A stretch of 61,755 nucleotides of DNA, counting the filler. It is 8 parts of 8 records of this genome, joined end to end, with 100 filler letters (N's around TTAATTAATTAA, not from the genome) between each part and the next. Parts side by side here need not be neighbours in the genome. Positions count along the whole stretch, not along the records: positions 24,458 to 30,896 come from SRR31147125_99175; 7 more parts are not named here. The stretch is one strand, 5' to 3'. This document shows, piece by piece, positions 5,633-55,832 of this stretch. The notes beneath the pieces are model-generated. The model searched no databases, was not told where the DNA came from, and saw nothing but the letters and a program-made list of their open reading frames with translations. Made by a program: the position numbers and the translations under genes. The first letter of the stretch is position 1, and each line of letters begins with the position of its first letter.

Positions 5633-7101
5633 CTAATTCCCGGCCTGTACAATCAACTCCTTGCGATAATGATCCAGCAGCGTCGACTTGGAGAGCATAC
5701 CGACAAAGTGATGCTTCTCCACTACCGGCAACGTATTCAGCCCCCGACGCTCCATCAAACCGATCACATCGGCCAGTTCGTCATCCGTAGAAACGGTGGG
5801 CACGCTTTCATCCATCACCTGCTCAACCATCAGAACCGCGTGCATCTGGGAATCGAACAGATAGGGGCGGATGCGATCCACATAAATGATGCCCTGGTAA
5901 TTGCCGCTGTGCCGATCAACCACCGGGAACCGGTGCTGTCGCGAGCCCTCCAGAATCGGCAGAAAATCGCGGAGCAGCATATCGCCCGGCACCGTTGTGG
6001 TCACCTTGTCCACCAACTCTCTGACGGTCAGATCGGACAGGACCCGGGCATCGGTTCCCGGTCTCAGGAACTGTCCCTTCTCGATCAGATCGCGCAGATA
6101 AAATGAGGCCGGTTCAATATAGTAGCAAAAGGTTGAGGTGAGCGCCGAAACGATGATCAGCGGCAACACCACATCATAGCCGCCCGTAATTTCCACCACC
6201 AGGAAGATAGCGGTCAGAGGCGCCTGCAGCATACCGCTCACCAATCCGGCCATGCCCAACAGGGCAAAGCAACCCTCGCTGCTCAATAAAGCCGTGGGCA
6301 TCATCCAGGTCAACAGGCGATGATAGACCAGCCCCACCAAGCTGCCGATCATCAGGCTGTGTGCAAAGATTCCACCCGATCCGCCCCATCCCAGGGTGAA
6401 AGCAGTCGCCACCATCTTGGCCACCATCACCAGTGCCGCCAGCAACAACCCTTGGGTGAAGGTTCCCTGAATCATCTCCTGGATCGAATGGTACCCTTCG
6501 CCGAGCACGTACGGCAGATAGATGCCGATGAGGCCGACAACAGCGCCGCCCACCGCAGGTCTAATCCAGTGGGGAAAGGGTGTCTGGACGGCCACGTGAT
6601 GCATCCCTTTGAGAAGCCGCCCAAGCACCACGGATACTATTGTGGCAACGATCACCACGCCAAAACTGGCAGCGATATCAGGTAGGCCGATGGTAAACTT
6701 CTGGTGCTGAAAAGCGATCTGATTACCTTGCAGCAGCCGGCTCACTTCAGTACCGGCTACAGCAGCGATAGCGATTGGAATGATGTTAAACGAACGCCAC
6801 TCCCCCAAGACCACTTCAACCGTAAAAACAAGCCCCGTAATCGGGGCGTTGAAAATGGCCCCGATAGCGCCGGCCGCACCACATCCGACCAGTGTTATGC
6901 GTTGGCGCTCCCTTAGCGAGAAGAGTTTGGCAATGTTGGACCCCAGCGCCGCGCCGCTCATGACCACCAGGGCCTCCGGGCCGGCCGAGCCGCCGCTGCC
7001 GATGGTGAGGCAGCTGGATACCAGGCGGGAGTAACTGGATCGAAACCGCAGGAGGCCGCCATAGCGCGAGACGGCATAAACCACCTCGGGCACACCGTGC
7101 C
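5633..7101 (-). CDS. ClC chloride channel/transporter with C-terminal CBS pair (5' truncated at contig end)
   Basis: HGVPEV, GGSAGPEA, GAAGAIGAIFNAP, GGSGGIFA and APLTAIFLVVEITGGY motifs, followed by two CBS domains. Confidence 0.9.
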
Positions 7102-7201
7102 NNNNNNNNNNNNNNNNNNNNNNNNNNNNNNNNNNNNNNNNNNNNTTAATTAATTAANNNNNNNNNNNNNNNNNNNNNNNNNNNNNNNNNNNNNNNNNNN
7201 N
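7102..7201. other. Artificial contig linker
   Basis: N44-TTAATTAATTAA-N44, with stops in all six frames. Confidence 0.98.
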
Positions 7202-7445
7202 CTTCAACCCCATTGACGATGAAGTCCATTGCGCCATAGCTAAATTTATCGCTCCCTATCATGGACTCCTTCTCTCCTTGAAGAATCAGATTCATCGCCG
7301 GCTCATACAAGCAGGGCTCTTGGAGCTCTTCTTTTGAACAACGATAAATAGAGAGCCCTTTGACAGGGGTTGGATAGAGTCCGTCCTCTGGAAACAAGGT
7401 TAAAATGGTCTCAAGCATAGACGCTGTGATCAGGCTGTGTGGCAA
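7202..7445 (-). CDS. AraC-family regulator, N-terminal ligand-binding part (3' truncated)
   Basis: SD GGAGG and TTG 7445. TPVKGLSIYR...CLYEPAMNLILQGEK resembles the AraC N-terminal domain and the neighbouring paralog. Confidence 0.75.
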
Positions 7446-7681
7446 TGTTACCTCCAGAGAGTGGCAATAAGGGTGTCGTAGGATTCGATCTATAGCAGAT
7501 CTCTCATCATGCGATATCTAAATAAATAGGAATAGAGACCATATACTACTATTGTTGCCTAATACTGCCGGGTGGGTAAGTTGTAAAAATCAGTTACACC
7601 TTGGATGAGTGCAGAGAACCGATTGCCGGTGTACTCTAACGCTTATGTGGATTTCGCACTTAAGCAGAGACTCAGAGACTT

Positions 7682-8605
7682 GTGAACATGGATAACGGCA
7701 AAGATATGCTTACAGAGAAGCTAAGCAGGCTAAGTCGAATGGTTTCCCAACGAGCATTCAAGCACGGAGACTTTGCAACCAAGATTCCCGACCTTGAATT
7801 GCATCGAAGAGAAATCACGCAGCGGCCTGAGAATTGTTTCAATAAGCCTATTCTGGCTCTGACTGTGCAGGGTGCCAAACGGACTTTAATTGGGGCTCAG
7901 GAGTATCGGTATGGGGCGGGTCACTGTTTGTTGGCTGGTATTGACATGCCGACCATGAGCTATCAAACAGAGGCGTCAAAAGAGCACCCGTATCTGGTGA
8001 TCTCGTTAAAGTTAGACGCTCATCTCACTTCAACACTTTCGGAGCAACTGCCACAAAGTCCATCTGATGAAGTGCGTCAAGGTGCAACCGTGATGCCCGC
8101 CGATGTAGAGCTGGCTGATGCATTTATCCGACTACTCGAGTTGTTAGAGAAGCCTGAGCAGATCCCCCTGTTGGCACCTGTGATTGTGCAGGAAATCCAT
8201 TTGCAACTGCTGCTTGGGCCTCATGGCGATGTGCTTCGAGCCATCAATACTCATGGGACACAAAGTTACCATGTGATGCAGACCATTAATTGGTTAAGAG
8301 AGCATTTTACACAGCCTTTAGAGATTGAGGTTCTTGCAGAAAAAGCCCACATGGCGCCGTCAACATTTCGTAAACACTTTAAGGCCATGACAACTATGAA
8401 TCCCACTGAATATATTCAGCACTTACGTCTTTATGACGCACAGCGTCTAATGCTGGAAGAGGCTTTGGATGCGACTTCAGCGAGTTATCAAGTGGGTTAT
8501 GAAAGTCTTTCCCAATTCAACCGGGAATATAAGCGGCTATTTGGCGATGCACCTATGCGAAATGTGCAGCAACTCATTGCGCAACGTTCTGAAACTGCTT
8601 CCTAA
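7682..8605 (+). CDS. AraC-family transcriptional regulator (YqhC-like)
   Basis: VQGAK N-domain and C-terminal double HTH (FRKHFK...RL..A..LM, VGYESLSQFNREYKRLFG). Start may be ATG 7688 or 7706. Confidence 0.92.
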   Translation: MNMDNGKDMLTEKLSRLSRMVSQRAFKHGDFATKIPDLELHRREITQRPENCFNKPILALTVQGAKRTLIGAQEYRYGAGHCLLAGIDMPTMSYQTEASKEHPYLVISLKLDAHLTSTLSEQLPQSPSDEVRQGATVMPADVELADAFIRLLELLEKPEQIPLLAPVIVQEIHLQLLLGPHGDVLRAINTHGTQSYHVMQTINWLREHFTQPLEIEVLAEKAHMAPSTFRKHFKAMTTMNPTEYIQHLRLYDAQRLMLEEALDATSASYQVGYESLSQFNREYKRLFGDAPMRNVQQLIAQRSETAS

Positions 8606-14289: not shown

Positions 14290-14389
14290 NNNNNNNNNNN
14301 NNNNNNNNNNNNNNNNNNNNNNNNNNNNNNNNNTTAATTAATTAANNNNNNNNNNNNNNNNNNNNNNNNNNNNNNNNNNNNNNNNNNNN
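14290..14389. other. Artificial contig linker
   Basis: N44-TTAATTAATTAA-N44. Confidence 0.98.
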
Positions 14390-15699: not shown

Positions 15700-15795
15700 A
15701 ACGGCCACGAATGACGAGTAATTTGTCAATACCATGGAAGGTATTTAGCACAAATGGATGAATCATGGACGGAAAATTTAGATGGAGGTGCTAAA

Positions 15796-16230
15796 ATGGC
15801 AAGTCGCCAAGTAAAATGTTCGCTTTTAGATAAAGATATGGAAGAAATCCCGCTAACCATTGACGATATCAACAATATAGCTCAGTTTTACAGAATTAAC
15901 AGAAAAACTGCTTTTAACCGCTTTGTTGATGTCAACCCAAGTAAAAGTGTAGGGACTTTTCAAATGATCAAAACAAAAACCTGCGCTTTTCTGGATGAAT
16001 GTGACTGCTGCATGCTTGGCAACGCACAGCCCACTTTTTGCAAACTGGCAAATAAAACCATTGAAAAAGATGAATGGGGAAAACCGAAAAGCGAAGAAAA
16101 CAGATTCAGAATTGCAGTTATGACTACCCAACAATATATTGAGACTCACACAGCAGGTTATGACAAGCTGGCTTTCGACGCTTTTTCCAAAATCATCCGA
16201 ATCCGCGCATTAAAAGGAGTTGTGAGATAA
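15796..16230 (+). CDS. Hypothetical Cys-containing protein, degenerate YkgJ/UPF0153-like
   Basis: SD GGAGG and ATG 15796. IPLTIDDINNIAQ...CAFLDECDCCMLGNAQPTFCK resembles the LT..DI..IA / C.FL...C.I...RP..C pattern. Confidence 0.55.
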   Translation: MASRQVKCSLLDKDMEEIPLTIDDINNIAQFYRINRKTAFNRFVDVNPSKSVGTFQMIKTKTCAFLDECDCCMLGNAQPTFCKLANKTIEKDEWGKPKSEENRFRIAVMTTQQYIETHTAGYDKLAFDAFSKIIRIRALKGVVR

Positions 16231-16302
16231 CGATGATCTTAAACTCCAATGACAAAAAACAATATACGCAACTCTCAACATTTGCATACGGAGGTTGCCG
16301 GA

Positions 16303-19061: not shown

Positions 19062-19074
19062 CGAGAGTTTATAA

Positions 19075-19887
19075 ATGTATGTGGCTGAACGAATGAACAA
19101 CAAAATTTTCAGCAGATTCTGTGAAATAGCATACGCTAAAGCAGGAATCAAACTAAGCAAAGGCAAAGAAGCCCTTGTTGCAGCAAGAGTTGCCAAAAGA
19201 CAGCGAATGCTGAAAATCACCACGCAAAAAGAGTATCTCGAATATCTGGAAAATGACGAAACAAATGAAGAACTTGTAAATTTTCTGGATGTTATCTCCA
19301 CCAACTTCACCAGTTTTTTCCGCGAGAAAGACCATTTCGATTTTTTGAAAACATTAATGGAAAAGTGGATTAAAGGTGGTCAGACAAAATTCAGGATCTG
19401 GTCGGCAGCAAGTTCAAGTGGCGAAGAACCTTATTCGATAGCTATAACTCTGAACGAACTGGTCAGATGTGAAGAACTGGATCAAAAAATACTGGCAACC
19501 GACATATCCACCAGAATCCTTTCCAAAGCTAAAACCGGTATTTACTCAAAAGACAAGCTTGAAAAAATGCCGAAATACTTGCGTTTACGCTACTTTGAAA
19601 AACTGGGAAAAGGAGCAGAGCTGGAGGCCAGGAACACGCTGAAAGACTTGATAATTTTTAAAAGGCTCAATTTGGCATCAAAGCCATATCCGATGAAAGG
19701 GCCGCTCGATGTTGTTTTTTGTCGAAATGTAATGATTTACTTCGACATTAAAGTCAGACAAAATCTGATCTCGCAAATCGAAAAACTTCTAAAACCGGGA
19801 GGCTATCTTTTCATCGGTCATACAGAAACCCTTATGGGGGTGCAAACAAATTTACAGCACGTAAAACCATCGATTTATAAAAAATGA
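19075..19887 (+). CDS. cheR: Chemotaxis methyltransferase CheR
   Basis: TNFTSFFRE, RIWSAASSSGEEPYSIA, ATDIS, FCRNVMIYF and GHTE. Confidence 0.96.
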   Translation: MYVAERMNNKIFSRFCEIAYAKAGIKLSKGKEALVAARVAKRQRMLKITTQKEYLEYLENDETNEELVNFLDVISTNFTSFFREKDHFDFLKTLMEKWIKGGQTKFRIWSAASSSGEEPYSIAITLNELVRCEELDQKILATDISTRILSKAKTGIYSKDKLEKMPKYLRLRYFEKLGKGAELEARNTLKDLIIFKRLNLASKPYPMKGPLDVVFCRNVMIYFDIKVRQNLISQIEKLLKPGGYLFIGHTETLMGVQTNLQHVKPSIYKK

Positions 19888-19950
19888 TAAACCGAGGTGG
19901 TAAATAAATGAAATCAGCAGAAACAAAACAACGAGACGAGGCGATAGGCA

Positions 19951-20442
19951 ATGAATAACGGACTAAAGCAATTGACTGTAGATGTCTCGGATATTAAGGT
20001 TAGTGATAACCCGGAGAGCCTGATTGTTACATACGCTTTAGGTTCCTGTATTGCACTAATACTTCATGATCCAGTTAATAATATAGGTGGGATGATTCAT
20101 TACATGCTGCCCCACTCAAGAACTTCTCCGGACAAAGCCAAAAAGAATCCAGCAATGTTCGCCGATACGGGAATACCGACTCTTTTTAAACAGATGTACG
20201 CACTAGGTTCCAAAAAATCGGATATAATAGTCAAAGTAGCGGGAGGTGGAAAGCTCTGGGAAACAAAAAACTCTTTTGATATCGGCAAAAGGAATTATAC
20301 AATGTGCAGAAAAATACTCTGGAAAAACAGTGTAATGACTACTGCCGAAGATGTAGGAGGCAGTAAATCCAGAACTGTTAAACTGCACGTAGGGACAGGT
20401 AAGGTTACAGTGCATTCAAAAGGGGAGATTACAGAACTATGA
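19951..20442 (+). CDS. cheD: Chemoreceptor glutamine deamidase CheD
   Basis: ALGSCIA, GGMIHYMLP, FADTGI, KVAGG and EDVGG. Confidence 0.95.
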   Translation: MNNGLKQLTVDVSDIKVSDNPESLIVTYALGSCIALILHDPVNNIGGMIHYMLPHSRTSPDKAKKNPAMFADTGIPTLFKQMYALGSKKSDIIVKVAGGGKLWETKNSFDIGKRNYTMCRKILWKNSVMTTAEDVGGSKSRTVKLHVGTGKVTVHSKGEITEL

Positions 20443-21290
20443 TCGATAAGAATAAAATATTAAAACATGTGGATATGTTTCCCACACTACCTTTTGCTGT
20501 ATCTAATGTAATGAAGCTTCTGAATGATCCATCGGCAAGTGCGGCAAAAATCTCTGATGCAATAAAACCTGACCCCGCTTTAACTGGAAACCTGCTCAAA
20601 ATCGTAAACTCGGCCTTTTTTGGCTTAAGGAAAGATATAGTTTCGGTAAAACACGCAGCTACACTGCTTGGCACAAAGCGTCTGTTTGAAGTAACAGTAG
20701 CTGCTGCACTAACACCAATGGTACCAAAAGAAATTCCTGGGTATAATACAAAGGCAAGCCAGTTCTGGTCTCATTCTGTAGCAACGGCAGTTTTAGCTGA
20801 ACAGATCGCTAAAATCGTTGAGATCAAAGAAGAGGAATTGGCATTTACATCAGCTCTTTTGCACGACATCGGCAAACTCGTTATCGGTTCTTTTTTACAG
20901 GAAGAGGAACAGGAGTTACTGAAAAAACTGCAAAGCATGGATAAATCCTTCGTAGAAATCGAGACTGATATCCTAGGGGCTAATCATGCCGAAATTGGTG
21001 GTGATATATGTGACAGGTGGTCATTGCCGCAAAGTATAGGAATGGCAATCAGGTGGCATCATGATCCTTCGGCTAACCCTGATATTGACACCAGACATAT
21101 CTCCGACTTGATAAACATTGCAAATGGTTTGAGCTACGAAATAAGCTTTGGTAACGATCAGGGAGAATTGAGACGCCAGATCTCTGAAAACGCGATTGAA
21201 AGACTTGGAATAAAGGTCCAGCAGCTTGAGCAAGCAGCAAGTGATTCCATGGAACACATAAAAGAACTTAGCAGCTTGTTCAGGCAATAG
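20439..21290 (+). CDS. HDOD-domain protein
   Basis: FPTLP, DPALTGNLLKIVNSAFFG, FWSHS, LLHDIGK, HAEIG...WSLP and WHH. Confidence 0.92.
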   Translation: MIDKNKILKHVDMFPTLPFAVSNVMKLLNDPSASAAKISDAIKPDPALTGNLLKIVNSAFFGLRKDIVSVKHAATLLGTKRLFEVTVAAALTPMVPKEIPGYNTKASQFWSHSVATAVLAEQIAKIVEIKEEELAFTSALLHDIGKLVIGSFLQEEEQELLKKLQSMDKSFVEIETDILGANHAEIGGDICDRWSLPQSIGMAIRWHHDPSANPDIDTRHISDLINIANGLSYEISFGNDQGELRRQISENAIERLGIKVQQLEQAASDSMEHIKELSSLFRQ

Positions 21291-21305
21291 ATTGGAGAGA
21301 GCTAA

Positions 21306-21692
21306 ATGGCTTATAGAATCCTTATAGTAGATGATTCTGAAATTATCAGGTACGCGATTAAAAAATCGATTGGAATGTCTGGACTTAAGGTGTCAGAGAT
21401 TCTGGAGGCGGGTAATGGTGAAGAAGCTTTAGGTGTGATGAACGATGAATGGGTGGATGTTGTTTTCGCCGATCTGAACATGCCTCAGATGAGCGGCGAC
21501 GAAATGGTCGTTAAAATGTCTGAAGACAAAACTTTGTCTGAAATACCGGTAATAATAGTTTCATCAGAGCGCAATAAAGGAAGAATCGGGGAACTTGAGA
21601 AACTTGGTATAAACGGATATATCAAAAAACCTTTCAGACCGGAAAATTTCAGAGATGTTGTTGTTGGTCTTTTCGGCTCAGAAGGAGAATAA
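21306..21692 (+). CDS. cheY: CheY-like single-domain response regulator
   Basis: ILIVDDS, DLNMP and YIKKPF, inside the che operon. Confidence 0.88.
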   Translation: MAYRILIVDDSEIIRYAIKKSIGMSGLKVSEILEAGNGEEALGVMNDEWVDVVFADLNMPQMSGDEMVVKMSEDKTLSEIPVIIVSSERNKGRIGELEKLGINGYIKKPFRPENFRDVVVGLFGSEGE

Positions 21693-21695
21693 CAC

Positions 21696-22160
21696 ATGAA
21701 AAAATCTGTAACTGAAAATGAAGTTTTCGAGCTGTTAGCTAGATATTTTGAAGAAACCGCCTTTATATTCGTGGATATATACGATGATCCCGAACCCTTC
21801 AATGATGAGATAATTACGTCCAAAATTGGGTTCGGCGACAATGACGAAACAGGTACGATGTTTTTCTCGACACCTAAAGAATTTGCAATGGAAATGGCGG
21901 CAAACTTGCTTGGTGTAAATCCCGATGAAGCCAATCTGGAGCAAAAATCCACGGATGCCGTAAGTGAATTGTTGAACATAATCAGTGGTGGTTTAACGGA
22001 AATTTATTTCGGAATCGAGGGAGGAGCCAGATTCGGCTTGCCGGATACTACCACTATTTCCGAAAATGAATACAACAATGTGGCCAAGAAAGCAGATTTG
22101 CACATACCAATGATCTCCGATGAGGGATTCAGACTCGATTTTATTATTCAATGGAATTGA
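21696..22160 (+). CDS. CheX-like phosphatase
   Basis: MAANLLG...DAVSELLNIISG (ExxN motif). Confidence 0.75.
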   Translation: MKKSVTENEVFELLARYFEETAFIFVDIYDDPEPFNDEIITSKIGFGDNDETGTMFFSTPKEFAMEMAANLLGVNPDEANLEQKSTDAVSELLNIISGGLTEIYFGIEGGARFGLPDTTTISENEYNNVAKKADLHIPMISDEGFRLDFIIQWN

Positions 22161-23219
<1,059 letters not shown>

Positions 23220-23348
23220 ATAAGGGTTTTCGATGTAGGTTGTTAGTAGATTCAATTAACCAAAAATAAATTGGAAGGGATCATACTTTAATAACTTGAA
23301 AAAACCTTGGGAGAAAAAGGCACTGTAAATAATTGAAAAGGGGTAAGA

Positions 23349-23818
23349 TGAAAAGCCTAGAACCAAAACTAATGGAACCTTTCATACGGGCGACAATAGC
23401 TTGCTTTGAGACTATGATGGACATAGTTCCCGTACACAAAAGCGTATCAATCGCGCTTCCTCCGATTATGCTATCCGACATCTGTGGAATCATTGGACTA
23501 TCTGGCGATGCAAAAGGGACGGTGAGCATTTCTTTCAAAGAAGATGTTGCCATGAAGGTCGTCGGCAGATTTATCGAGGAAGAGATTACCGAAGTAGACA
23601 AAGATGTCTACGATGCTATTGGCGAAATCGTCAACATCATTGCCGGTGATGCAAAATCTACCCTTGGTGATTTGTCACTCTCGATTTCACTGCCGGCCAT
23701 TATGTCCGGTGAAAAATTAAACATGACTATCCCGGATGACATTTCCTTTGTAAACATCATTTTCGAGTTGCCAGAATTGGGCGAGTTTACATTAATGGTA
23801 GGTCTTGAAAAATCTTAA
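23349..23818 (+). CDS. cheX: Chemotaxis phosphatase CheX
   Basis: PFI.A, ICGIIGLSG..KG, DAIGEIVNIIAG and ISLP. Confidence 0.9.
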
Positions 23819-23897
23819 TCAAGACTTGACTTTAAATTTTTAAAGGTTATTAAAGATACTAATAGTTTAAGGTAAATGACCTTTTTTGGAGGATAGA

Positions 23898-24263
23898 ATG
23901 AAAATATTGGTGGTAGATGATTCTCGCACTATGAGAAAAATTCTTAAGAAAACAATTTTGGCAGCAAATGTAGATGAAGTTGTCGAAGCTGAAGATGGAT
24001 TGGATGCTCTTAAAAAACTGAAAGACGAAACTGGTATTGATATGATTCTGATGGATATCAATATGCCAAACGTAAACGGTGTTCAGGCATTGCAAGAGAT
24101 TAAAAAGATCCCCGCAATTAAAGACATTCCGGTAGTAATGTGCACGTCAGAAGCAGAAAAAGAGATGGTTATCGAGTGTATCAAAAGCGGTGCCAAAGAT
24201 TATATCGTTAAACCATTTTCCAAGGAAATCATTATTGACAAAATCGACAAGATACTTGGATAA
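23898..24263 (+). CDS. cheY: CheY response regulator
   Basis: SD GGAGG. KILVVDDSRTMR, DINMP, CTSE and YIVKPF. Confidence 0.92.
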   Translation: MKILVVDDSRTMRKILKKTILAANVDEVVEAEDGLDALKKLKDETGIDMILMDINMPNVNGVQALQEIKKIPAIKDIPVVMCTSEAEKEMVIECIKSGAKDYIVKPFSKEIIIDKIDKILG

Positions 24264-24357: not shown

Positions 24358-24457
24358 NNNNNNNNNNNNNNNNNNNNNNNNNNNNNNNNNNNNNNNNNNN
24401 NTTAATTAATTAANNNNNNNNNNNNNNNNNNNNNNNNNNNNNNNNNNNNNNNNNNNN
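24358..24457. other. Artificial contig linker
   Basis: N44-TTAATTAATTAA-N44. Confidence 0.98.
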
Positions 24458-24545
24458 GGCTATCTCTTTTCGAACGGCTATCTCTTTGGTTCATACCGAG
24501 CAAAATAACAGTTCGCGGCCACATGAAGATCCGGCTCAATTTCAT
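24458..24545 (-). CDS. Start of the next operon gene, possibly GspK (truncated)
   Basis: ATG overlaps the gspJ stop (ATGA) and the frame is open to the contig end. Identity is inferred from gene order only. Confidence 0.35.
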
Positions 24546-25342
24546 TGAAGAAGATCGCCTCCGACTTTGAACAACCAGCGGGTGCGGTTGTCCGGATCGT
24601 TTGACGTTTGAGCAAATTCCAGTCTGGCATATATCGGCAATGAATGGTTCGATTCCCACTCCTCTTCAAAAGCGCTGAAATCCAGTTTGGATGCCATCTC
24701 GGATGTCGTTCTAGAACTTCTAATGGTATTTTTTTGCCCACTGCCGCTTAGAAACGATACTTTGAACCGCACAACATCCTGAATCACTGCAGCCGGCATT
24801 GTGGTTGCTGCACCTTTTTTACCGTTTCCCTTATTTCTATTTTCACCATCCTCGATATCTTCGACACCGCCGATGACCTGTTCAAAGACTTCCAGCTTCT
24901 TCTCATCGGGATCATACAGATATCGAACATGAATCACCCCTTTGGCAGGGGTTCCCATCGGAGAGTATTTTGTATAAAATGAGAGCGAATTCCCATCCGA
25001 AAGAAAATCGAGTCGTGTGGCGCTTTGTCCGGCTCTTGAGGATGTTGCGTCTCCGGTATTCAGTGAGTCCGTGGCGATGGCGCCTTTTTCAAATGCCGCT
25101 TGCGAGATGACGGCTCGCAATTGTCGCGCCATCAGATTCGGCAGCACCAATTTGATCTGCACACTCTCTCCCTCGATGTTTCCCCTCTCCCAGGCTTGTA
25201 GGGTCATCCTGAATGCAAGGGCGAGCACCAACGTCAACATGGACACCAACACCATGGCCACCAAGACTTCGATCAATGTGAACCCGTCACCCGTTTTGAT
25301 ATGACACCCGTGTTGCATTACTGTGCCGGTTCCGGTACCCAT
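24542..25342 (-). CDS. gspJ: Type II secretion minor pseudopilin, GspJ-like
   Basis: G|FTLIEVLVAM prepilin site, positioned after gspI. Start may be ATG 25318. Confidence 0.78.
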   Translation of the reverse strand: MGTGTGTVMQHGCHIKTGDGFTLIEVLVAMVLVSMLTLVLALAFRMTLQAWERGNIEGESVQIKLVLPNLMARQLRAVISQAAFEKGAIATDSLNTGDATSSRAGQSATRLDFLSDGNSLSFYTKYSPMGTPAKGVIHVRYLYDPDEKKLEVFEQVIGGVEDIEDGENRNKGNGKKGAATTMPAAVIQDVVRFKVSFLSGSGQKNTIRSSRTTSEMASKLDFSAFEEEWESNHSLPIYARLEFAQTSNDPDNRTRWLFKVGGDLLQ

Positions 25343-25787
25343 CGTTCAATGCAATAGGACTTTTCGGAAAAAAAATGTCGGTGGGCCACGCAAATGCTCA
25401 CTTGAACCATTCCCGTCACTTCAATTTCTTCTCCCTCCTCTTTCACTCCGTGGGCAGACCTCTCATCCGTCATGGGCAAGATAAGATCCGAGCGGTTCAC
25501 AACAAGCGGTGTTGACGTCGCTTTGCAGGACCATTCGTCATCCCCTTCTATGGTTCCTTCGAAAGTCTCCTTGCTCACAATTTCCCGGAGCAGGGGGGAT
25601 TGGTCAGTATGTTTCTCATGACCCGCATCGCCTCCACCGCATGGTCGGCCCGGCCGGAAATTCCTTTAGCGGCCGACAATGCGCCGGTCACGGCAGTGAT
25701 GGAAACGCCCATGATGATCAGGGCGACCATCACCTCGATCAGGGTGTAAGCATCTTGATAGCCCCCATTCTCATCCTCAAAGGCCAC
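25318..25787 (-). CDS. gspI: Type II secretion minor pseudopilin, GspI-like (one-base indel in the run at 25593-25598)
   Basis: A|YTLIEVMVAL prepilin-like site. Adding one C joins ORF 25575-25787 to 25318-25578 (NPPLLREIVSKETFEG). Confidence 0.75.
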
Positions 25788-25802
25788 TGTCTGATCACAT
25801 TT

Positions 25803-26414
25803 TCACCCATCATCTGAATCGACAAAATTGATAGAGCCGGTCAATCGATCCACTTGAAATGTCGTCCCGTCATTTTCACCACTTTGGCCGCTCTCATCAA
25901 AACCAATGGAAAGACGCCCACCGGTTGAACTTCCATCGGGATAGAAGCAGATATAAAAAACCCCTTGGCCGTCGGACATCAGCTGCTCCCCTTCTCTTTT
26001 TGTACTTTCAATCCGCACGCGTTCGGGAATGGCAAGGGGCTTTTGATTCGCCATAGGGATAAATATCTCATTTTCTCCATATGGGGCACGATCCCCCCCA
26101 ACGGTTGTTGACTCGGCACTTGACCCCGGATACCCCATTTGAGCCACACGACATATCCGCTGCTTCGGTTCAATCGTTAAACAGACGGGGTAGGCATCGG
26201 CCTTTGATGCCGTCCGGGCGACTTTGCAAAGCGTCACCAAAGATTCCACAAACAGTCGACTCTGTTTCAATCGTCCGGATTGCCCGACATTCATCAAAAC
26301 CAGAGAACCTGCAATGGCGATCAGCAGCATCACCACCATGATTTCAATCAAGGTAAATCCGTCATGGCGTGGTCGTCCTGTTTGGATGGTGTCGTTGAAG
26401 CGCTGCGTCGTCAA
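25803..26414 (-). CDS. gspH: Type II secretion minor pseudopilin, GspH-like
   Basis: G|FTLIEIMVV, ICFYPDGSSTGG and VDRLTG. Confidence 0.85.
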   Translation of the reverse strand: MTTQRFNDTIQTGRPRHDGFTLIEIMVVMLLIAIAGSLVLMNVGQSGRLKQSRLFVESLVTLCKVARTASKADAYPVCLTIEPKQRICRVAQMGYPGSSAESTTVGGDRAPYGENEIFIPMANQKPLAIPERVRIESTKREGEQLMSDGQGVFYICFYPDGSSTGGRLSIGFDESGQSGENDGTTFQVDRLTGSINFVDSDDG

Positions 26415-27634
26415 AATTGAATCTCGTTGATACCGAAAATGGTGGATAACATGCTCACCACCACACCGCCGATGAGTAGCCCCAGAAAAAGGATGGAAAA
26501 AGGCTCCAACAAGGCGAGATAGGTTTTGATTTTCGATTGGATTTTGCGATCCAGGTCATCTGAGACGGAAACCAGCATATCGCCGATTTTTCCCGTCTCT
26601 TCTCCCAATGACACCATCTGAACCACCATGGGAGGAAAAACGGTGCGCTCACGCATCAATGCACTGACGCTTCGCCCCTCTTTGACCTGGGTGTAGATGT
26701 GATTCACCGCCTCTTTGACTTGACCGTTTATGACCACGGCACCGACAATATGGAGCGCTTTCATGAGAGGTACCCCGCTTTGCACAAGGGTTCCCAATGT
26801 TCGAGAAAATCGGCTCATCTCGATATCCAACAGCACCTCCCCCACATAAGGCACTTTCAAAATAACCTTGTCGTATGCCATGCGTCCTTTTTGAGACTTT
26901 AAAAACCGCCACCCCATTAACCCCAAAAGAATCATCACCGAGAGCAAAAGCCACCACCACACCCGAATGAAGTTACTCAGCTCCAACAATATCAAGGTCG
27001 ACAGGGGGATTTCCTGGCCGAGATCGGCAAAGATGCCTGCAAACTTCGGCACGACAAATCCAAGGATTACCAGCAACGAGAGAAGACCGACGGAGAGAAG
27101 GATGACGGGATAAATGGAAGAGGAGACAACATACTTTTTGATCTCCTCGCTACGCGCGATAAATTCGGAGAGGCGCTCCATCACCGACGGTAGGATCCCG
27201 CCCATTTCACCGACGCGAACCATATTGACATAGAGATCATTGAACTCTTCGGGCTTTTCCGCCATGGCATCGGAGAGGGTGTTTCCTTTCTTGAGGGCCT
27301 CTTGAAGGTAGCGGGTCATGGCCTGCACCTTTTTGTCCGATGTGGCGCTTCCGGCAATGGTCAATGCCCGATCCATCGGAAGGCCCGACTTAAAAAGGTG
27401 GGCAAGATCCGAAGTGAATTGAAGAAGCTTGGCATTGTTCAGGGTTCTGCCCCGGCCGACGCGTAGAAAGGAGCTAAAGGATAACGACGCATTGACGTCC
27501 GTTTCCATCCAGCGAAGCAAGACCGCTCCCCTGGATTGAAGGATCAAAAGAATCTCATCCTTGTCCCTGGCCTCCAGGGTCTCGATTTTTTTCTTTCCCT
27601 GGGCCGTGACGTATTCAAATCGAAAATCCGGCAT
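26411..27634 (-). CDS. gspF: Type II secretion inner-membrane platform protein GspF
   Basis: SGLPMDRAL, YVNMVRVGEMGG, YP, VVPKFA, SGVPL and GEETG...LLEP. Confidence 0.93.
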   Translation of the reverse strand: MPDFRFEYVTAQGKKKIETLEARDKDEILLILQSRGAVLLRWMETDVNASLSFSSFLRVGRGRTLNNAKLLQFTSDLAHLFKSGLPMDRALTIAGSATSDKKVQAMTRYLQEALKKGNTLSDAMAEKPEEFNDLYVNMVRVGEMGGILPSVMERLSEFIARSEEIKKYVVSSSIYPVILLSVGLLSLLVILGFVVPKFAGIFADLGQEIPLSTLILLELSNFIRVWWWLLLSVMILLGLMGWRFLKSQKGRMAYDKVILKVPYVGEVLLDIEMSRFSRTLGTLVQSGVPLMKALHIVGAVVINGQVKEAVNHIYTQVKEGRSVSALMRERTVFPPMVVQMVSLGEETGKIGDMLVSVSDDLDRKIQSKIKTYLALLEPFSILFLGLLIGGVVVSMLSTIFGINEIQF

Positions 27635-29256
27635 CAGCGGGAGACCCTCAACACCTCTTCAAAGGTTGTCACCCCTTGTGCCACTTTTTCCAATCCATCC
27701 AATTTCAATGACCGCATGCCGCTTTTAACCGCTTTTTTAAAAATCCGATTCCTATCGGCACCTGCCGCCACTTCACCCTGTAGTGCCTCATCCATGACCA
27801 TCAGCTCAAAAATTCCAAGCCGGCCTTTGTATCCGGTTTCCCCGCATGCCTTACACCCTTCGCCTCGGCTGAATGATGAGGGGAGCTCATCTTGGGGCAG
27901 GGCAAAGTCCTCCGAAAGCCGTTGACGCTGCTCGTCGGAGAGATGAAACGTTTTAAGGCATTGGGTGCAATTTTTCCGGACCAGCCGCTGGGCCAGAACC
28001 GCCACAAGAGAGGAGGAGATCATAAACCGCTCGATGCCCATATCCTCAAGACGCGTCACAGCGCCTGCCGCATCGTTGGTATGGAGCGTCGAGAAAACCA
28101 TATGACCGGTCAGTGCCGCCTGAACGGCAATCTCCGCGGTTTCTCCGTCTCGAATCTCCCCGATGAGCATGACATCGGGATCATGGCGAAGAAATGAGCG
28201 CAATGTGCCGGCAAAGGTCAGCCCGATGGATGAATGCACCTGCACCTGATTGACCCCATCCAACTGATACTCCACGGGATCTTCCACCGTGACTATTTTT
28301 TTATCCGGCGTGTTGATCTCATTGAGAGCGGCATAAAGCGTGGTGGTCTTTCCCGATCCTGTGGGACCGGTCACCAGAAGAATGCCGAAAGGGTTGGCAA
28401 TAACGGATCGAAATGTTTGGAGAAGCGCACCGCCAAAGCCGAGCTCCACCAGATCGAGGGAGATGTTCTCTTTGTTTAAAAGCCGTAAGACGATACTTTC
28501 GCCGAAATGCGTCGGGATGGTGGAGACACGAATATCGACCTCGTCCTGCCCGGATCGAATTTTTATTCTTCCATCCTGGGGAAGTCGCCGTTCCGCAATA
28601 TCGAGTTTTGCCATCAACTTCACTCTGGATATAATGGCCGCTTTGAGACGGGCCGAGATGGCTTCCTGGTCATGAAGCACCCCGTCAATGCGATAGCGGA
28701 CCAACACCGTATGGCGTCTCGGTTCAATATGAATATCCGAGACACCCAGCTCCAGTGCTCTGTTGATCACGTGGTTGACCAATCGAATGACAGGCGCTTC
28801 AGAGGCAATTCCCTTCAACTGTTCAGGATCGTCCCATAATGCCTCTTCCAGGGAGAGATCCAGCGTTTCAGCCTCATCATCGGCGGTCATATCGGCGTCG
28901 GCCTCGTACCACCGATAGATATATTGACTGATCAGCTCTTTCGACGCGCGAAACACCTCCAACGGCTTTGCGTAGGTTGCCCGAATGATTTCCCTGGTGT
29001 TGAAATCCAAGGGGTCACCCATCATCACCTGAAGCGCCCCATCCTCATCCCGGATAGGAACGAATTGATACCGTTTCAAAAAATTCACCGGAAGCAGCAG
29101 CACGGCAGGTGGATTTTCCGGAATTTCCTTCTCATCCACCATTGGGATTTCAACCGCATTCGTCTCAACCGACTGCGTGGCAGCAGCGGGTGAGGCTTTG
29201 GGCGTCGTCAAGGCTTTTTTACTGCCTCGCCTGGATTTAAATAGAGATGACAGCAT
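27634..29256 (-). CDS. gspE: Type II secretion ATPase GspE
   Basis: SDIHIEP, ERRLPQDGR, Walker A GPTGSGKTT, EDPVEY, LRHDPD...GEIRD, STLHTN and a tetracysteine CxxC...CxxC. Confidence 0.95.
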   Translation of the reverse strand: MLSSLFKSRRGSKKALTTPKASPAAATQSVETNAVEIPMVDEKEIPENPPAVLLLPVNFLKRYQFVPIRDEDGALQVMMGDPLDFNTREIIRATYAKPLEVFRASKELISQYIYRWYEADADMTADDEAETLDLSLEEALWDDPEQLKGIASEAPVIRLVNHVINRALELGVSDIHIEPRRHTVLVRYRIDGVLHDQEAISARLKAAIISRVKLMAKLDIAERRLPQDGRIKIRSGQDEVDIRVSTIPTHFGESIVLRLLNKENISLDLVELGFGGALLQTFRSVIANPFGILLVTGPTGSGKTTTLYAALNEINTPDKKIVTVEDPVEYQLDGVNQVQVHSSIGLTFAGTLRSFLRHDPDVMLIGEIRDGETAEIAVQAALTGHMVFSTLHTNDAAGAVTRLEDMGIERFMISSSLVAVLAQRLVRKNCTQCLKTFHLSDEQRQRLSEDFALPQDELPSSFSRGEGCKACGETGYKGRLGIFELMVMDEALQGEVAAGADRNRIFKKAVKSGMRSLKLDGLEKVAQGVTTFEEVLRVSR

Positions 29257-29713
29257 TATTCCCAGCTAACGATATCTTTATCCATTTTACCCTCCCCCCT
29301 TCCGCACCATCCCCGGCATAACTGAAAAGATCGTATTTTCCATGTTCACCGGGAGATACATAATGAAACGGATTGTCCCAGGCGTCGTTGGGTACCGGTT
29401 TGGGAAGATAAGGGCCGTCCCATTTTTTCAACTCTCCGGGATTTTCCCGAAGTGCGCCCAATCCCTCCTCCGTTGTCGGATATCGTCCATTGTCCAGCCG
29501 GAAACTGTCCAGTGCCGACCCCAGCAATTCAATTTGGGTTTTGGTCGTTTTTATTTTTGCCTGATCAATTTTACCGAAAAATTTTGGCGCAACAAGCGCT
29601 GAAAGTAACCCCACAATGATGATGACCACCATAATCTCAATCAAGGTAAATCCCGCCTGTCGGTTACGCTTCATTTTCTGTAAACAGCGCCGGCACTCAT
29701 TTTCAGAATCCAT
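29256..29713 (-). CDS. gspG: Major pseudopilin GspG (true end EGGEGKMDKDIVSWE* after restoring one G at 29294-29299)
   Basis: G|FTLIEIMVV, FRLDNGRYPTTEEGL..L, WDGPYL, DAWDNPFHY.SPG. The corrected stop overlaps the gspE start (TAATG). Confidence 0.93.
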
Positions 29714-29760
29714 TTTCCACCTATATCCTTCATGTGTTTGTTGACTGCCGGTCATGAGAA

Positions 29761-30870
29761 TCACTCCGGAGTCTTCTCTGTTTCCGCCTTCGTTTCATTT
29801 TCAACGCGTTGATGCTTTTGTCTTTCCTGAGCCTCTTTAATTAACGCCTCAAATTTCTTCTTCAAAGCGGCTGCACGTTCAGGATCTTGTTTTACCGGCT
29901 CCGCTCCTCCGGAGGGTGCCTTTTCTTTTTTCTGTTGCTGCAGCTGCTTAATGACTTCAAGAAAATTTCCCGCACTTTTCGCGTCATCCACTCCGGTATT
30001 TTTACCTTTGACAGCTTGGTTCGCTTGATTTCCTTTAGGGGTCGTCATGCGACCGGCTGAAGGGGATTTGGAATCAAGAAGACGGGCCATCACATTCAAT
30101 TTCATCTCCGGTTGAATCTTACTGTCCGTTTCCAAAATCAATACATCATAATAGGCACCGGCCTCTTCTTTGGTATTTTCGACAGTGATCGTGTATTGCT
30201 TCCGCCCATCGTCCGTTTGCCCTTCCGACAGTTCATATTTGACAAACTCATCTCTATGGGCACGAATCTTCTTTATGACAAACGGGTGCTGAGGCTCAGG
30301 AATCACTGTTACCGTGGCCTTCATGGGTTCACCGACTCTTCCATTGAAACGAACCACACGAGGTGTAATGGTGGCAAAGCGCTCCACCTGACCGGCCACC
30401 GACAATTTTGTTTTTGGAGATGCCGGATCGTCCGACTCCACAGTAATGGTTTTATTTAGATGACGTCCGCCATATCCTTTTGTATTTACTTTAATCGCAA
30501 TTTTTCCCTCTTCACCTGGAGGGATCTCTCTTGAGTAAGAGACGGTAGTGCACCCTCAACCGGTTCGGACCTTCTGGATATGGAGCGGCGCATCTCCTTT
30601 ATTTACAAATGAAAACTCATGAGTCACCTCAACACCTTCCACAACTTTTTTGAAGGTATAATTGGGCGCTGAAAACGAAATTGAAGGAGAGTGCCCACTT
30701 TCAGCTTCATTGACTTTGTCGTCACTCTTTGCCACGTTCTCTTTGACAACCTCACCTTCCATCGCAGCGCGCTTCTCAGCCCCGATACATGGAGTTGACA
30801 ACAGAAAACAAAAAGCCAGCAGGGCAATCCCCACTGCTTTGAACCGACCATTCATAATTATAGACCTCAT
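29761..30870 (-). CDS. Exported DUF1573-like Ig-fold protein, probable selenoprotein (UGA at 30558-30556, codon 105; 369 aa)
   Basis: ORF 30556-30870 continues in frame through the UGA into ORF 29761-30441: HEFSFVNKGDAPLHIQKVRTG-UGA-GCTTVSYSREIPPGEEGKIAIKVNTKGYGG..LNKTITVESDDP. The family's xCGC motif reads G-U-G-C here. Confidence 0.8.
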
Positions 30871-30896
30871 TATTTTTGATTAAGAACCAAACACTC

Positions 30897-30996
30897 NNNN
30901 NNNNNNNNNNNNNNNNNNNNNNNNNNNNNNNNNNNNNNNNTTAATTAATTAANNNNNNNNNNNNNNNNNNNNNNNNNNNNNNNNNNNNNNNNNNNN
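30897..30996. other. Artificial contig linker
   Basis: N44-TTAATTAATTAA-N44. Confidence 0.98.
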
Positions 30997-31024: not shown

Positions 31025-32284
31025 TTATGAATCAGCTAGTTTTATCAAGGTCTGAGCCAGAACATCAGCGCCTTTTCGAATATCTTCGAACTCGGTCCAT
31101 TCGTCAGGGCTGTGGCTCACACCTTCTTTACAAGGCACAAATATCATTCCGATTGGGGCGAACTGTGCAACCATAGCAGCATCGTGAAAAGCCCCGCTGA
31201 CAAGCGGTATATTTTCATAACGAAGTTCTTCGGAGGCCTTTTTGATCTCCGCAACGATTGACGGCGCACATGTTACCGTTTCTTCATGGGTGATTACATC
31301 GATCTCAATGCTGACCTTTCGTTTGTCCTCGAGCACCCTGGCATGCTCTTTGAGTGAATTGAGCACCTCACTCTTCGTGTTCATGTGCCGGTCACGCAGA
31401 TCAATTGAAAACTCTACCTGCTTGGGAATAACATTGGACGCATTTGGAGTAACGGACATCTTTCCGATGGTTCCAACCAGGTACGGTTCATCGCTACCGT
31501 AAATCTGTGATTCGAAATGCCGGCAAAACTCACCGAACGCCATCATCGGGTCCACCCGTTCATACTTCGGGGTTCCGCCTGCATGCCCCTGAATTCCTGA
31601 TATCTTTATGTTCAGCGAGGTCATACCATAGATGGCCTCAACGATACCTATCGGAATTTTTTTCCGATCAAGAATCGGTGCCTGCTCAATATGCAGTTCT
31701 ATGAAGGCATGCACATCTTCAGGACCACGGGCAATCGTATCGAACGTATCAATATCAAACCCGATATTCTGCAAAACCGATTCAAGTGTTTTACCTTCAC
31801 CGTCAACGATACGTTGGGTGTCTTCCCGCCTCAGCAATCCGGCTAACGCGTGGCTGCCGATTCCCCATTCACCGAATCTTGTCGGCTCTTCAGAGGTAAA
31901 TACAATAACCTCGAGATTTCGTTTGTGGGCAATACCTGATTTCCTGATAGCGCGTAATGCCTCTATGCCGGCGACAACGCCCGCCATACCGTCGAACTTG
32001 CCTGCGTTGTTTACGGTGTCGATATGAGATCCGGTCCATACCGGTGCGAGACTCGGGTCTGTCCCCGCCAGGGTTGCAAAGATATTGCCGACACCGTCTT
32101 CTCTTACGGTTAAACCTGTTTCCACCATCCGCTGTTTTACATATTCGCGCGCCTTCAATTCTTCATCGGTGAAAAGTATCCGGGTTGTTCCATAGCCTGG
32201 AGTCGAGTTATAGGAGTCTATCGTATCGATGTCTTTCTTTATCGTTTCAAACGATGTACGGGGAAGTTTCATTGCCTCACTCAC
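31025..32284 (-). CDS. M20 Zn-dependent amidohydrolase (allantoate amidohydrolase / N-carbamoyl-L-amino acid hydrolase family)
   Basis: GSHIDTV, GKFDG, EEPTRF, ELHIEQ, HAGGTP, SGAFHDA and SHSPDE. Confidence 0.9.
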   Translation of the reverse strand: MSEAMKLPRTSFETIKKDIDTIDSYNSTPGYGTTRILFTDEELKAREYVKQRMVETGLTVREDGVGNIFATLAGTDPSLAPVWTGSHIDTVNNAGKFDGMAGVVAGIEALRAIRKSGIAHKRNLEVIVFTSEEPTRFGEWGIGSHALAGLLRREDTQRIVDGEGKTLESVLQNIGFDIDTFDTIARGPEDVHAFIELHIEQAPILDRKKIPIGIVEAIYGMTSLNIKISGIQGHAGGTPKYERVDPMMAFGEFCRHFESQIYGSDEPYLVGTIGKMSVTPNASNVIPKQVEFSIDLRDRHMNTKSEVLNSLKEHARVLEDKRKVSIEIDVITHEETVTCAPSIVAEIKKASEELRYENIPLVSGAFHDAAMVAQFAPIGMIFVPCKEGVSHSPDEWTEFEDIRKGADVLAQTLIKLADS

Positions 32285-37395: not shown

Positions 37396-37495
37396 NNNNN
37401 NNNNNNNNNNNNNNNNNNNNNNNNNNNNNNNNNNNNNNNTTAATTAATTAANNNNNNNNNNNNNNNNNNNNNNNNNNNNNNNNNNNNNNNNNNNN
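37396..37495. other. Artificial contig linker
   Basis: N44-TTAATTAATTAA-N44. Confidence 0.98.
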
Positions 37496-38899: not shown

Positions 38900-40635
38900 G
38901 TGATTCATCAATTCGACACCGTGATTGTCGGGTCTGGCGGTGCAGGTCTTTACGCCGCACTGGAAGCCAGCCAGCGGTCAAAAACGGCGGTCCTTTCCAA
39001 ACTCTATCCGATTCGAAGCCACACCGGTGCAGCACAGGGTGGGATCAGCGCCGCGCTGGGCAATGTCGAGGAGGACAAGCCCGAATGGCATGCGTTCGAT
39101 ACCGTCAAAGGCGGTGACTATCTGGTCGACCAGCAGGCAGCTAAAATTCTGGCCGAAGAGGCGGTCCAGGCGGTTTACGACTTGGAGAACAGGGGGTTGC
39201 CCTTCAACCGCACCCCCGAAGGGCGCATCGATCAACGCCGCTTCGGTGGTCATACACGCAATTTCGGAGAAGCCCCGGTCAAACGCGCCTGCTATGCGGC
39301 CGACCGCACCGGTCACATGATTCTACAGACCCTCTATCAACAGTGCATTAAAAACAAGGTCTCGTTTTTCGACGAGTATCAGGTCATGGACCTGATCATG
39401 GACAACAACACGTGCAGGGGGTGGTAGCCGTTCAGCTCTCCACCGGCGACCTGCACATTCTGGCCGCCAAGGCAGTGCTCTTTGCCACCGGTGGTTTCGG
39501 TCGCCTGTTCAAAATCACCTCCAATGCCTTTGCCAATACCGGCGACGGCCCGGCTGTCTGTGCGCGGCGGGGCATACCGCTGCAGGACATGGAATTTTTC
39601 CAATTCCACCCCACCGGCATCATGGGGCTGGGCATTTTGATCTCCGAGGCGGTGCGCGGCGAGGGCGGTATCTTGCGCAACCGGGACGGCGAGCGCTTCA
39701 TGGAGCGCTACACGCCCACCCTGCTGGACCTGGCGCCCCGCGATATCGTCGCCCGCTCGATTATGACTGAAGTGCGCGACGGCAAGGGAATTCGCGGCGA
39801 TCGCAAGATTGACGACTATGTGCACCTGGATGCGACCCATCTGGGCAAAGAGACACTGCTCGGCAAGTTGCCGGATATCACCAGTTTCTGCAAAACCTAT
39901 CTGGGCATCGACCCGGCTGACGCCCCCATACCGGTACTGCCCACTGCTCACTACGCCATGGGCGGCATTCCCACCGATACACACGGCCGGGTGGTCTGCG
40001 ACAGCGAGGGCACAGTGGTCAATGGGCTCTATGCGGCCGGCGAATGCGCCTGCGTTTCGGTCCACGGCGCCAACCGACTGGGCACCAACAGCCTCCTGGA
40101 CCTGGTGGTTTTCGGCCGTCGCGCCGGACAGCATATCGGCGACTATGTCAAACAGGCCGATGCGCCACAAGCCAAGGAAGAGGATGCCGAAACCGCACGG
40201 GCTTGGATCGAGCGTTTGACGGACGGCAAATCAGGCCCCCACGGTGGTCACATCACCGAAGAGATGCAAACCACAATGATGGAGAAGGTGGGCATCTACC
40301 GTAACGCCGGTGACATGCAATCGGCCACGGAGGCCGTCCAGTCCCTTCGAGAGCGCTACTTGGCCGTCCGCGTCCAGGACACCAGCAAGCAGTTCAATAC
40401 CGATCTGCTCGAAGTCATAGAGTTGGGCAATATGCTGGATCTCTCCTTGATCACCGCAGCATCGGCGCTCAACCGCCAGGAGAGCCGCGGCGCCCACAGC
40501 CGGGAAGACTTCCCGGAGAGGAACGATGACGAGTGGCTCAAACATACCCTCACCCACCTGGAAGGCGACACGGTGCGCATCGATTACAAGCCGGTGGACG
40601 CCTCCATATGGACGCCGAAACCGCGCACCTATTAG
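38900..40635 (+). CDS. sdhA: Succinate dehydrogenase/fumarate reductase flavoprotein (about 578 aa; one missing G at 39417-39421)
   Basis: [16 protein letters not shown] (FAD His), [27 protein letters not shown] and ESRGAH. Confidence 0.92.
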
Positions 40636-49619: not shown

Positions 49620-49719
49620 NNNNNNNNNNNNNNNNNNNNNNNNNNNNNNNNNNNNNNNNNNNNTTAATTAATTAANNNNNNNNNNNNNNNNNNNNNNNNN
49701 NNNNNNNNNNNNNNNNNNN
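49620..49719. other. Artificial contig linker
   Basis: N44-TTAATTAATTAA-N44. Confidence 0.98.
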
Positions 49720-55732: not shown

Positions 55733-55832
55733 NNNNNNNNNNNNNNNNNNNNNNNNNNNNNNNNNNNNNNNNNNNNTTAATTAATTAANNNNNNNNNNNN
55801 NNNNNNNNNNNNNNNNNNNNNNNNNNNNNNNN
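55733..55832. other. Artificial contig linker
   Basis: N44-TTAATTAATTAA-N44. Confidence 0.98.

Follow-up and report, generated by a model that had tools for sequence, protein, structure and literature searches.

The window analysed here is a stretch of 61,755 nucleotides that consists of eight draft-assembly contigs, joined via seven spacers of the form N44-TTAATTAATTAA-N44 (positions 7102-7201, 14290-14389, 24358-24457, 30897-30996, 37396-37495, 49620-49719, and 55733-55832). The gene in question lies on the minus strand at 29761..30870, belongs to the OS_HP2/DUF1573 family, carries a single in-frame UGA codon, and is followed on the same strand by an operon for a type II secretion system (T2SS). 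Since the contigs were joined artificially, gene neighbourhoods cannot be read across the spacers. The contig of the DUF1573 gene runs from 24458 to 30896, with the start of the gene 26 nt from the contig's end, and the DNA beyond 30896, including the amidohydrolase gene at 31025..32284, is not a neighbour because it belongs to a separate contig.

Two open reading frames (ORFs) had been called at the locus, 30870..30556 (104 aa, ending in TGA) and 30441..29761 (226 aa, with a GTG start), and both occupy the same frame. With the TGA read as selenocysteine (U), 30870..29761 forms a single frame, 369 codons long and closed by a TGA, in which codon 105 (30556..30558) is the sole internal stop and the 38 codons separating the called ORFs (30555..30442) are all open. 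The observation of an earlier note that the two ORFs are a single, UGA-interrupted gene is therefore confirmed. The codon sits in the context ...HIQKVRTG-U-GCTTVSYSREIPPGEEGKI... (KVRTG-U-GCTT), and the match to DUF1573 (PF07610) spans it without interruption. The true start is probably the second ATG, at 30855, as homologs begin at this second methionine (MNGRF...) and a GAGG is located 9 nt before it. A re-assembled public contig, which extends 28 nt past the end of the window contig, contains the gene at a word depth of 102 with identical letters, but it may derive from the source sample and is thus not independent.

Profile matches bear out the T2SS operon that the earlier note had placed next on the same strand. 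The next gene, gspG, encodes the major pseudopilin (29237..29674; PF08334, E 1.4e-34; TIGR01710, 152.5 bits against 88.85) and is followed by genes for the GspE ATPase (27634..29256; PF00437, E 1.3e-138; TIGR02533, 611.6 bits, just below the cut-off of 630) and the inner-membrane platform protein GspF (26411..27634; PF00482, E 3e-58; TIGR02120, 365.6 bits, below the cut-off of 424). Minor pseudopilin genes with N_methyl motifs then occupy 24542..26414, where TIGR01708 gives a weak match (42.7 bits against a cut-off of 80). They comprise a gspH-like gene (25803..26414), a gspI-like gene split over two frames (25318..25787, as 25787..25575 with a prepilin-type N-terminus and 25578..25318), and a gene for a 266-aa pseudopilin (24542..25342), the last before the contig ends at 24458. 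The previously stated distance of 47 nt to gspG holds only if gspG starts at ATG 29713; with ATG 29674, which by our reading gives the usual short prepilin leader (MKRNRQAG/FTLIE), the gap is 86 nt. No terminator-like or promoter-like site was found on the minus strand in this 86-nt gap. The re-assembled contig inserts one more C after 29293, towards the 3′ end of gspG and shortly before the gspE start, and the deposited sequence may hold an indel error at that point that alters the GspG C-terminus.

The encoded protein resembles an exported, two-domain molecule with a helical extension, and an AlphaFold2 model, built from a 17-row alignment with a mean predicted local distance difference test (pLDDT) score of 79.3, agrees with the signal peptide, two beta domains, and helical tail that had been proposed earlier. 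The model places a helix at residues 10-23, a disordered linker, beta-sandwiches at 64-163 and 166-265 (pLDDT above 90), and helices at 302-316 and 330-365. The predicted N-terminal export signal (30778..30870, minus strand) consists of basic residues followed by the hydrophobic model helix and ...CIGA/EK, a pattern conserved in the alignment, with the cleavage site (at the slash) being our own reading. The residue preceding the signal cysteine is P or L in homologs and, as we read the alignment, bears no resemblance to a lipobox. The first domain, an immunoglobulin (Ig)-like DUF1573 domain at residues 64-162 (30385..30681; PF07610 and PF22544; pLDDT above 90), holds U105-G-C107, and in the model the selenocysteine residue sits between strands 96-103 and 108-112. 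The second beta-sandwich (residues 166-265; 30076..30375) matches no Pfam family, and is assigned by the model and Foldseek to a tandem Ig/ASH-like fold. The charged C-terminal helices (29776..29967) contain the motif ...DPERAAALKKKFEALIKEAQERQK..., which is conserved in the Desulfamplus clade and is common to its selenocysteine and cysteine forms. Foldseek returned ciliary central-apparatus chains (E about 1e-10) and PDB entry 2qsv (E 3.5e-9), all with query-normalised template-modelling scores of at most 0.28. The fold class of both domains is thus shared with 2qsv, an uncharacterised protein of Porphyromonas gingivalis, and with ASH/HYDIN-type Ig domains. A profile search of solved structures gave nothing at E <= 0.01, and a single-domain search gave only 2qsv, at a marginal E of 0.7. 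As 2qsv lacks a CxC motif at the aligned place, no solved structure shows the UGC/CGC site.

The protein is a member of a known family and not a new selenoprotein. Residues 68-163 match positions 3-98 of the 98 positions of NCBIfam NF041425, the "OS_HP2 family (seleno)protein" model (137.9 bits against a cut-off of 100), and residues 64-162 match PF07610 (82.9 bits against a cut-off of 26.1, E 1.8e-23); the related HYDIN/VesB-like Ig model PF22544 (E 3.9e-13) was matched as well. Membership in OS_HP2/DUF1573 is therefore supported by the family score, by a U-G-C motif aligned to cysteine, and by a downstream stem-loop. The DUF1573/PF07610 "UGC" family was predicted as a selenoprotein in 2007 (PMC1976440), where OS_HP2, or "Olavius symbiont's hypothetical protein 2", is among six selenoprotein families of the delta-1/delta-4 symbionts of a gutless worm. 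A 2008 table from ocean sampling lists OS_HP2 (pfam07610, UxC) with two selenocysteine and 354 cysteine sequences (PMC2398784), and the family also appears in later reviews (PMC9312934, PMC13188914). The available passages of the 2007 paper ask for experimental verification of its further candidates and describe no experiment on OS_HP2 (PMC1976440). The domain, the column of the U-G-C motif, the alignment of UGA with cysteine, the stem-loop, and the deltaproteobacterial host are all the same as in the published family. What the clade of the window adds is the charged helical tail and the position at the head of a gsp operon, and neither is found in the available literature passages. The earlier designation of the locus as the best candidate for a new system consequently falls away, since DUF1573 in its UGC form has already been described as OS_HP2, a family with a curated NCBI model whose cut-off the protein passes. 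As a selenoprotein call it carries little weight, the family having been published in 2007 and built into the NCBI annotation models, and a protein of this kind is nothing unusual in a sulfate-reducing deltaproteobacterium.

The UGA is conserved among relatives. For this comparison, species-representative genomes were scanned and the best 80 of 269 loci were kept. The homologous codon is TGA in 44/80, cysteine (TGT or TGC) in 35/80, and serine (TCT) in 1/80, so the UGA is conserved and not private to the window. All 44 TGA loci are labelled Thermodesulfobacteriota or deltaproteobacterial metagenome-assembled genomes, while the cysteine forms comprise four close paralogs plus loci from Planctomycetota, Bacteroidota, Acidobacteriota, and others. 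The latter cysteine-form proteins share the Ig-like domain and an invariant C-G-C-T-T/S motif; they differ from the window's protein in having cysteine in place of selenocysteine, often in having other architectures (for example, two DUF1573 repeats in several Bacteroidales loci), and in lacking gsp neighbours. One of the closest genomes (G002) contains three members of the family, of which two carry TGA and the third does not. A protein database search gave 40 matches, and in the 16 of these that were aligned (those with PF07610 at E <= 1e-41) the U105 column contains C in 13 and W in three; we take the three tryptophans to be UGA codons that were probably translated as Trp by a pipeline. These locus and homolog alignments both support the earlier claim that the UGA falls on the first cysteine of the family's CGC motif. 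Many of the database matches are only 206-284 aa in length, lack the domain, and cover just the C-terminal 53-70% of the query, as would be expected of genes that gene callers have cut at the UGA. For example, a 222-aa entry from Desulfamplus magnetovallimortis matches the length of the ORF L002:7421-8089; the ortholog of this species in L002 spans 6968..8089. Gene callers thus still split OS_HP2 genes, and both the window and many database entries hold the C-terminal fragment only.

Two hairpins follow the UGA. Hairpin 1 (30525..30542, minus strand), the candidate selenocysteine insertion sequence (SECIS), starts 13 nt after the UGA and has six pairs with a local folding free energy (dG) of -6.9; hairpin 2 (30506..30523) lies directly behind it, with a CCCUC/GAGGG stem, GGU in the loop, and a dG of -9.3. 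Statistics were computed on 45 selenocysteine-form segments, using shuffles, slid partners, and synonymous recodings as controls. A hairpin starts 10-13 nt past the UGA in 45/45 forms, and in most other Desulfobacterales hairpin 1 is longer, with its register shifted by a few bases. In the majority register, five of seven pairs are changed on both sides within the 45-sequence alignment, with compensatory examples including UCU/AGA, UCG/CGA, and UUCG/CGAA. Such both-side changes fill 28 cells against 10.8 +/- 2.8 in shuffles, with 0/500 reaching 28, although the sequences are related and the shuffle and rank figures for the hairpins are therefore not probabilities. Moreover, 80.8% of cells are paired, versus 35-54% when the partner is slid, and the mean local dG of the 45 forms is -7.1 versus -3.45 once the same peptides are recoded synonymously; ten cysteine or serine forms are weaker at this position (0 to -6.1). 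For the window itself, hairpin 1 reaches -6.9 versus -2.4 +/- 2.1 for recodings (p 0.03 with the codon usage of the window). Hairpin 2 is paired in 93% of cells and reaches -9.3 versus -4.8 +/- 2.3 (p 0.033), but it is the weaker evidence because it is also kept in the close cysteine paralogs. The pattern suggests that hairpin 1, perhaps stacked on hairpin 2, may serve as the SECIS.

The genomic background is compatible with recoding. UGA is an ordinary stop and not reassigned, since 11/25 long genes of the window end in TGA, as does the OS_HP2 gene itself. Indirect support for a selenocysteine machinery comes from the two genomes closest to the window, the Desulfamplus genomes G001 and G002, in which selB scores 366 and 361.5 bits (cut-off 242) and tRNA-Sec 76.6 bits (cut-off 47), and from a second selenoprotein-type gene on another contig of the window. 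None of selA, selB, selC, or selD was found in the window.

The neighbourhood of the gene was compared among the 80 loci by using the window's Gsp proteins as tblastn queries within the flanks. In 10/80 loci (L001, L002, L004-L006, and L008-L012), gspG-E-F comes immediately after the gene on its own strand; all ten are TGA forms and fall in the Desulfamplus clade together with the window. At one other locus (L045), gspG is divergently upstream, and one planctomycete locus has a GspE-like match 3 kb away; no Gsp match was found within the flanks of the other 68/80. The T2SS linkage is accordingly genuine but limited in range, and the protein has no conserved place in gsp operons wherever it occurs (10/80 loci plus the window). 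In a quick IQ-TREE tree with support from the Shimodaira-Hasegawa-like approximate likelihood ratio test, L001 comes out as the sister of the window (69% identity, support 99), and the 11 T2SS-linked selenocysteine forms and four cysteine paralogs make up one group (support 93) with the cysteine paralogs nested inside. Other selenocysteine forms of the Desulfobacterales are shorter, at about 230-280 aa, and lack the tail. The genes upstream differ among the linked loci, with metK on the opposite strand in L001 and a sulfotransferase and radical-SAM cluster in L002, and the junction with gspG is therefore the part that has been retained.

One of the closest genomes, G001, shows how such an operon continues beyond the point at which the window's contig ends, with gspK, a PilN-domain gspL-like gene, a small ORF, an 884-aa secretin, a histidine kinase, and a sigma-54 regulator. 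This OS_HP2-headed operon (L081, G001:C7:48000-64000; G-E-F-H..K-L-M-D) is without a T2SSC-domain gene. The sole canonical GspC of the genome, with its PDZ domain, is encoded in a second, partial cluster of the order K-L-M-x-C-D (L082, G001:C7:688000-707900), which has no E, F, or G and behind which a CAP-domain protein is encoded. Genes for CAP-domain (cysteine-rich secretory) proteins are located near both gsp clusters of G001, and these proteins may be cargo. The sigma-54 promoter pattern, sought in ten relatives upstream of the OS_HP2 gene or before gspG, was matched only once, weakly, at 443 nt upstream in L004.

Taken together, the locus very probably encodes a genuine OS_HP2 selenoprotein that is predicted to be exported, likely carries a redox dyad, and, in the Desulfamplus clade, is probably co-expressed with the T2SS. 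In this interpretation, UGA105 would be decoded as selenocysteine by SelB and tRNA-Sec, guided by the short stem-loop about 13 nt downstream and with the second hairpin directly behind it. The N-terminal Sec-type (general secretory) signal, as judged from the sequence and the model, would export the protein. The mature form would then consist of two Ig-like beta-sandwiches and a charged helical tail, with U105-G-C107 held between two strands of the first domain. By analogy with other UxC and UxxC selenoproteins, the most likely activity is that of a selenol/thiol pair (U105/C107) that would cycle via a selenenylsulfide and form a periplasmic redox centre on the Ig-like scaffold, with the binding of soft metals as an alternative. 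CXC thiol oxidoreductases, such as those of the Erv2 type, have two redox-capable residues one glycine apart. The fold that carries the C-G-C arm of the Erv2-type sulfhydryl oxidases is unrelated, and the resemblance is a lead for the chemistry only. Finally, the OS_HP2 gene of the Desulfamplus clade, standing first before gspG-E-F-H-I-J-K-L-M-D, is probably co-expressed with the T2SS, as judged from gene order, and its product might be cargo or a periplasmic accessory. The earlier suggestion of a chaperone or substrate would be of this kind, and the interpretation from which it came is partly supported. What the locus presents is a known family in a lineage-specific operon context.

Several observations weigh against one or another part of this interpretation. 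The window contains no tRNA by ARAGORN and no Rfam match. In the window's clade, hairpin 1 is short, with 5-6 pairs and a dG of -4.9 to -7.3. When the codon usage is taken from the segments, hairpin 1 of this clade does not stand apart from its recodings, at p 0.11 in the window and p 0.3-0.4 in several relatives. By our reading the loop of the window's hairpin 1 is without a G, a base that is highlighted in a figure legend of the 2007 paper (PMC1976440). RNAalifold, applied to the 45 segments, gave five trivial pairs only and missed hairpin 1, since its register is not the same from clade to clade, and the pairs were therefore counted on the named structure. Compensatory changes are lacking in hairpin 2, which is also retained in the close cysteine paralogs. 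On the side of secretion, there is no T2SS link at the 34 remaining selenocysteine-form loci or at any of the four close cysteine paralogs, which share the helical tail. The gaps before gspG reach about 400 nt in relatives and thus leave room for a separate promoter, and the protein matches no Gsp family, including T2SSC (PF11356), at E <= 0.1 in Pfam or NCBIfam.

These last points are also what sustains the leading alternative, in which the linkage to secretion is incidental and an ordinary OS_HP2 protein, with a periplasmic role independent of the T2SS, has been kept in front of the gsp genes simply by descent. Adjacency to gsp genes in 10/80 loci and a single clade is what such a history would leave, and so is the variety of settings elsewhere, with other selenocysteine forms between priA and a haloacid dehalogenase (HAD) hydrolase (priA upstream in L019, L021, and L044; the hydrolase downstream in L021, L038, and L044). 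Likewise, in two Desulfamplus genomes, nested cysteine paralogs of the same architecture (L003 at 7004-8092 and L007 at 7013-7954) immediately follow genes for large molybdopterin oxidoreductases that resemble formate dehydrogenase. Speaking for a functional tie are the gspG junction, kept in 10/10 informative loci of the clade despite differing upstream neighbours and while protein identity across the gsp-linked loci falls to about 42-47%, and the window gap, which holds no terminator-like site. We give incidental linkage a chance only slightly below even, and for the T2SS pairing as such, co-expression as cargo or accessory and a merely inherited gene order are about equally probable.

A bolder possibility is that the OS_HP2 protein of the Desulfamplus clade, having gained a coiled-coil tail, was recruited into the T2SS to act in the periplasm, either as a disulfide catalyst or checkpoint that uses its selenol on cysteine-rich cargo or as an adaptor that, like GspC, links the inner-membrane platform to the secretin. 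It is suggested by the OS_HP2-headed gsp operon that lacks a GspC of its own and by the CAP-domain genes beside both gsp clusters. GspC, a T2SS component of the inner membrane that makes contact with the secretin, consists of an N-terminal hydrophobic segment, periplasmic beta-rich domain or domains, and a C-terminal interaction module, in an operon-start position, and XcpP ends in a coiled coil. The likeness of OS_HP2 to GspC/XcpP is in this outline only; PF11356 gives no match at E <= 0.1, and the OS_HP2 architecture also occurs in paralogs far from gsp genes. Replacement of GspC by OS_HP2 was considered as well and is weakened by the canonical GspC present elsewhere in the closest genomes. 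Recruitment into the T2SS is on balance unlikely, but if true it would make this OS_HP2 the first selenoprotein tied to a protein secretion system.

The two remaining alternatives concern the UGA itself, and both are highly improbable. One of them takes the TGA for a sequencing error or a nonsense mutation, which would leave a pseudogene or two small genes, and the assembly does have indel-type flaws elsewhere (the extra C behind 29293, sdhA split at 39412-39427, and the split gspI-like gene); against this, 44 related loci, drawn from many assemblies, carry TGA at exactly the codon in question, the re-assembled contig (depth 102) agrees letter for letter, a stop would cut the beta-sandwich domain mid-way, and the frame is open and conserved for 264 codons past the TGA. 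The other, that UGA in this organism encodes an ordinary amino acid (Trp or Gly, tables 4 or 25), to which the W in the U105 column of three database homologs might point, is countered by the long genes that end in TGA, by an aligned residue that is Cys and never a conserved Trp or Gly, and by selB and tRNA-Sec in the closest genomes.

With OS_HP2 membership and probable selenocysteine insertion as the preferred reading, the only new point is the pairing with the T2SS, which is confined to one clade of sulfate-reducing bacteria. The addition to the existing record is therefore one of operon context, in that a clade including the cultured D. magnetovallimortis keeps the selenocysteine form at the head of a complete T2SS operon. 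No such pairing was found in the available passages of the literature on DUF1573 or on selenocysteine together with type II secretion and Desulfobacter*, supplements not being covered, and the word "secretion" is absent from a 2026 review. Moreover, the same genomes hold cysteine paralogs elsewhere, which offers a testable handle on the role of the DUF1573 U-G-C/C-G-C dyad.

Three further observations concern other contigs of the window. A second gene with an in-frame TGA lies at about 1600-2100 on the plus strand, with an H-U-G-P motif (...KGYH-U-GPAVLQ...). Its match to NF045501, the HUGP/GUXX-star selenoprotein model, covers profile positions 1-157 and scores 237.7 bits, short of the 325 required for the fusion form, and the gene also weakly matches the C-GCAxxG-C-C family; it, too, would be split at the UGA by gene callers. 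The sdhA/frdA flavoprotein gene at 38900-40635 (plus strand) is split into the overlapping ORFs 38900-39427 and 39412-40635, with a frameshift that is either real or an assembly error. Finally, a complete chemotaxis operon encoding a methyl-accepting chemotaxis protein, CheA, CheR, CheD, CheB, CheX, and CheY is located on its own contig, at 14497-24263 on the plus strand.

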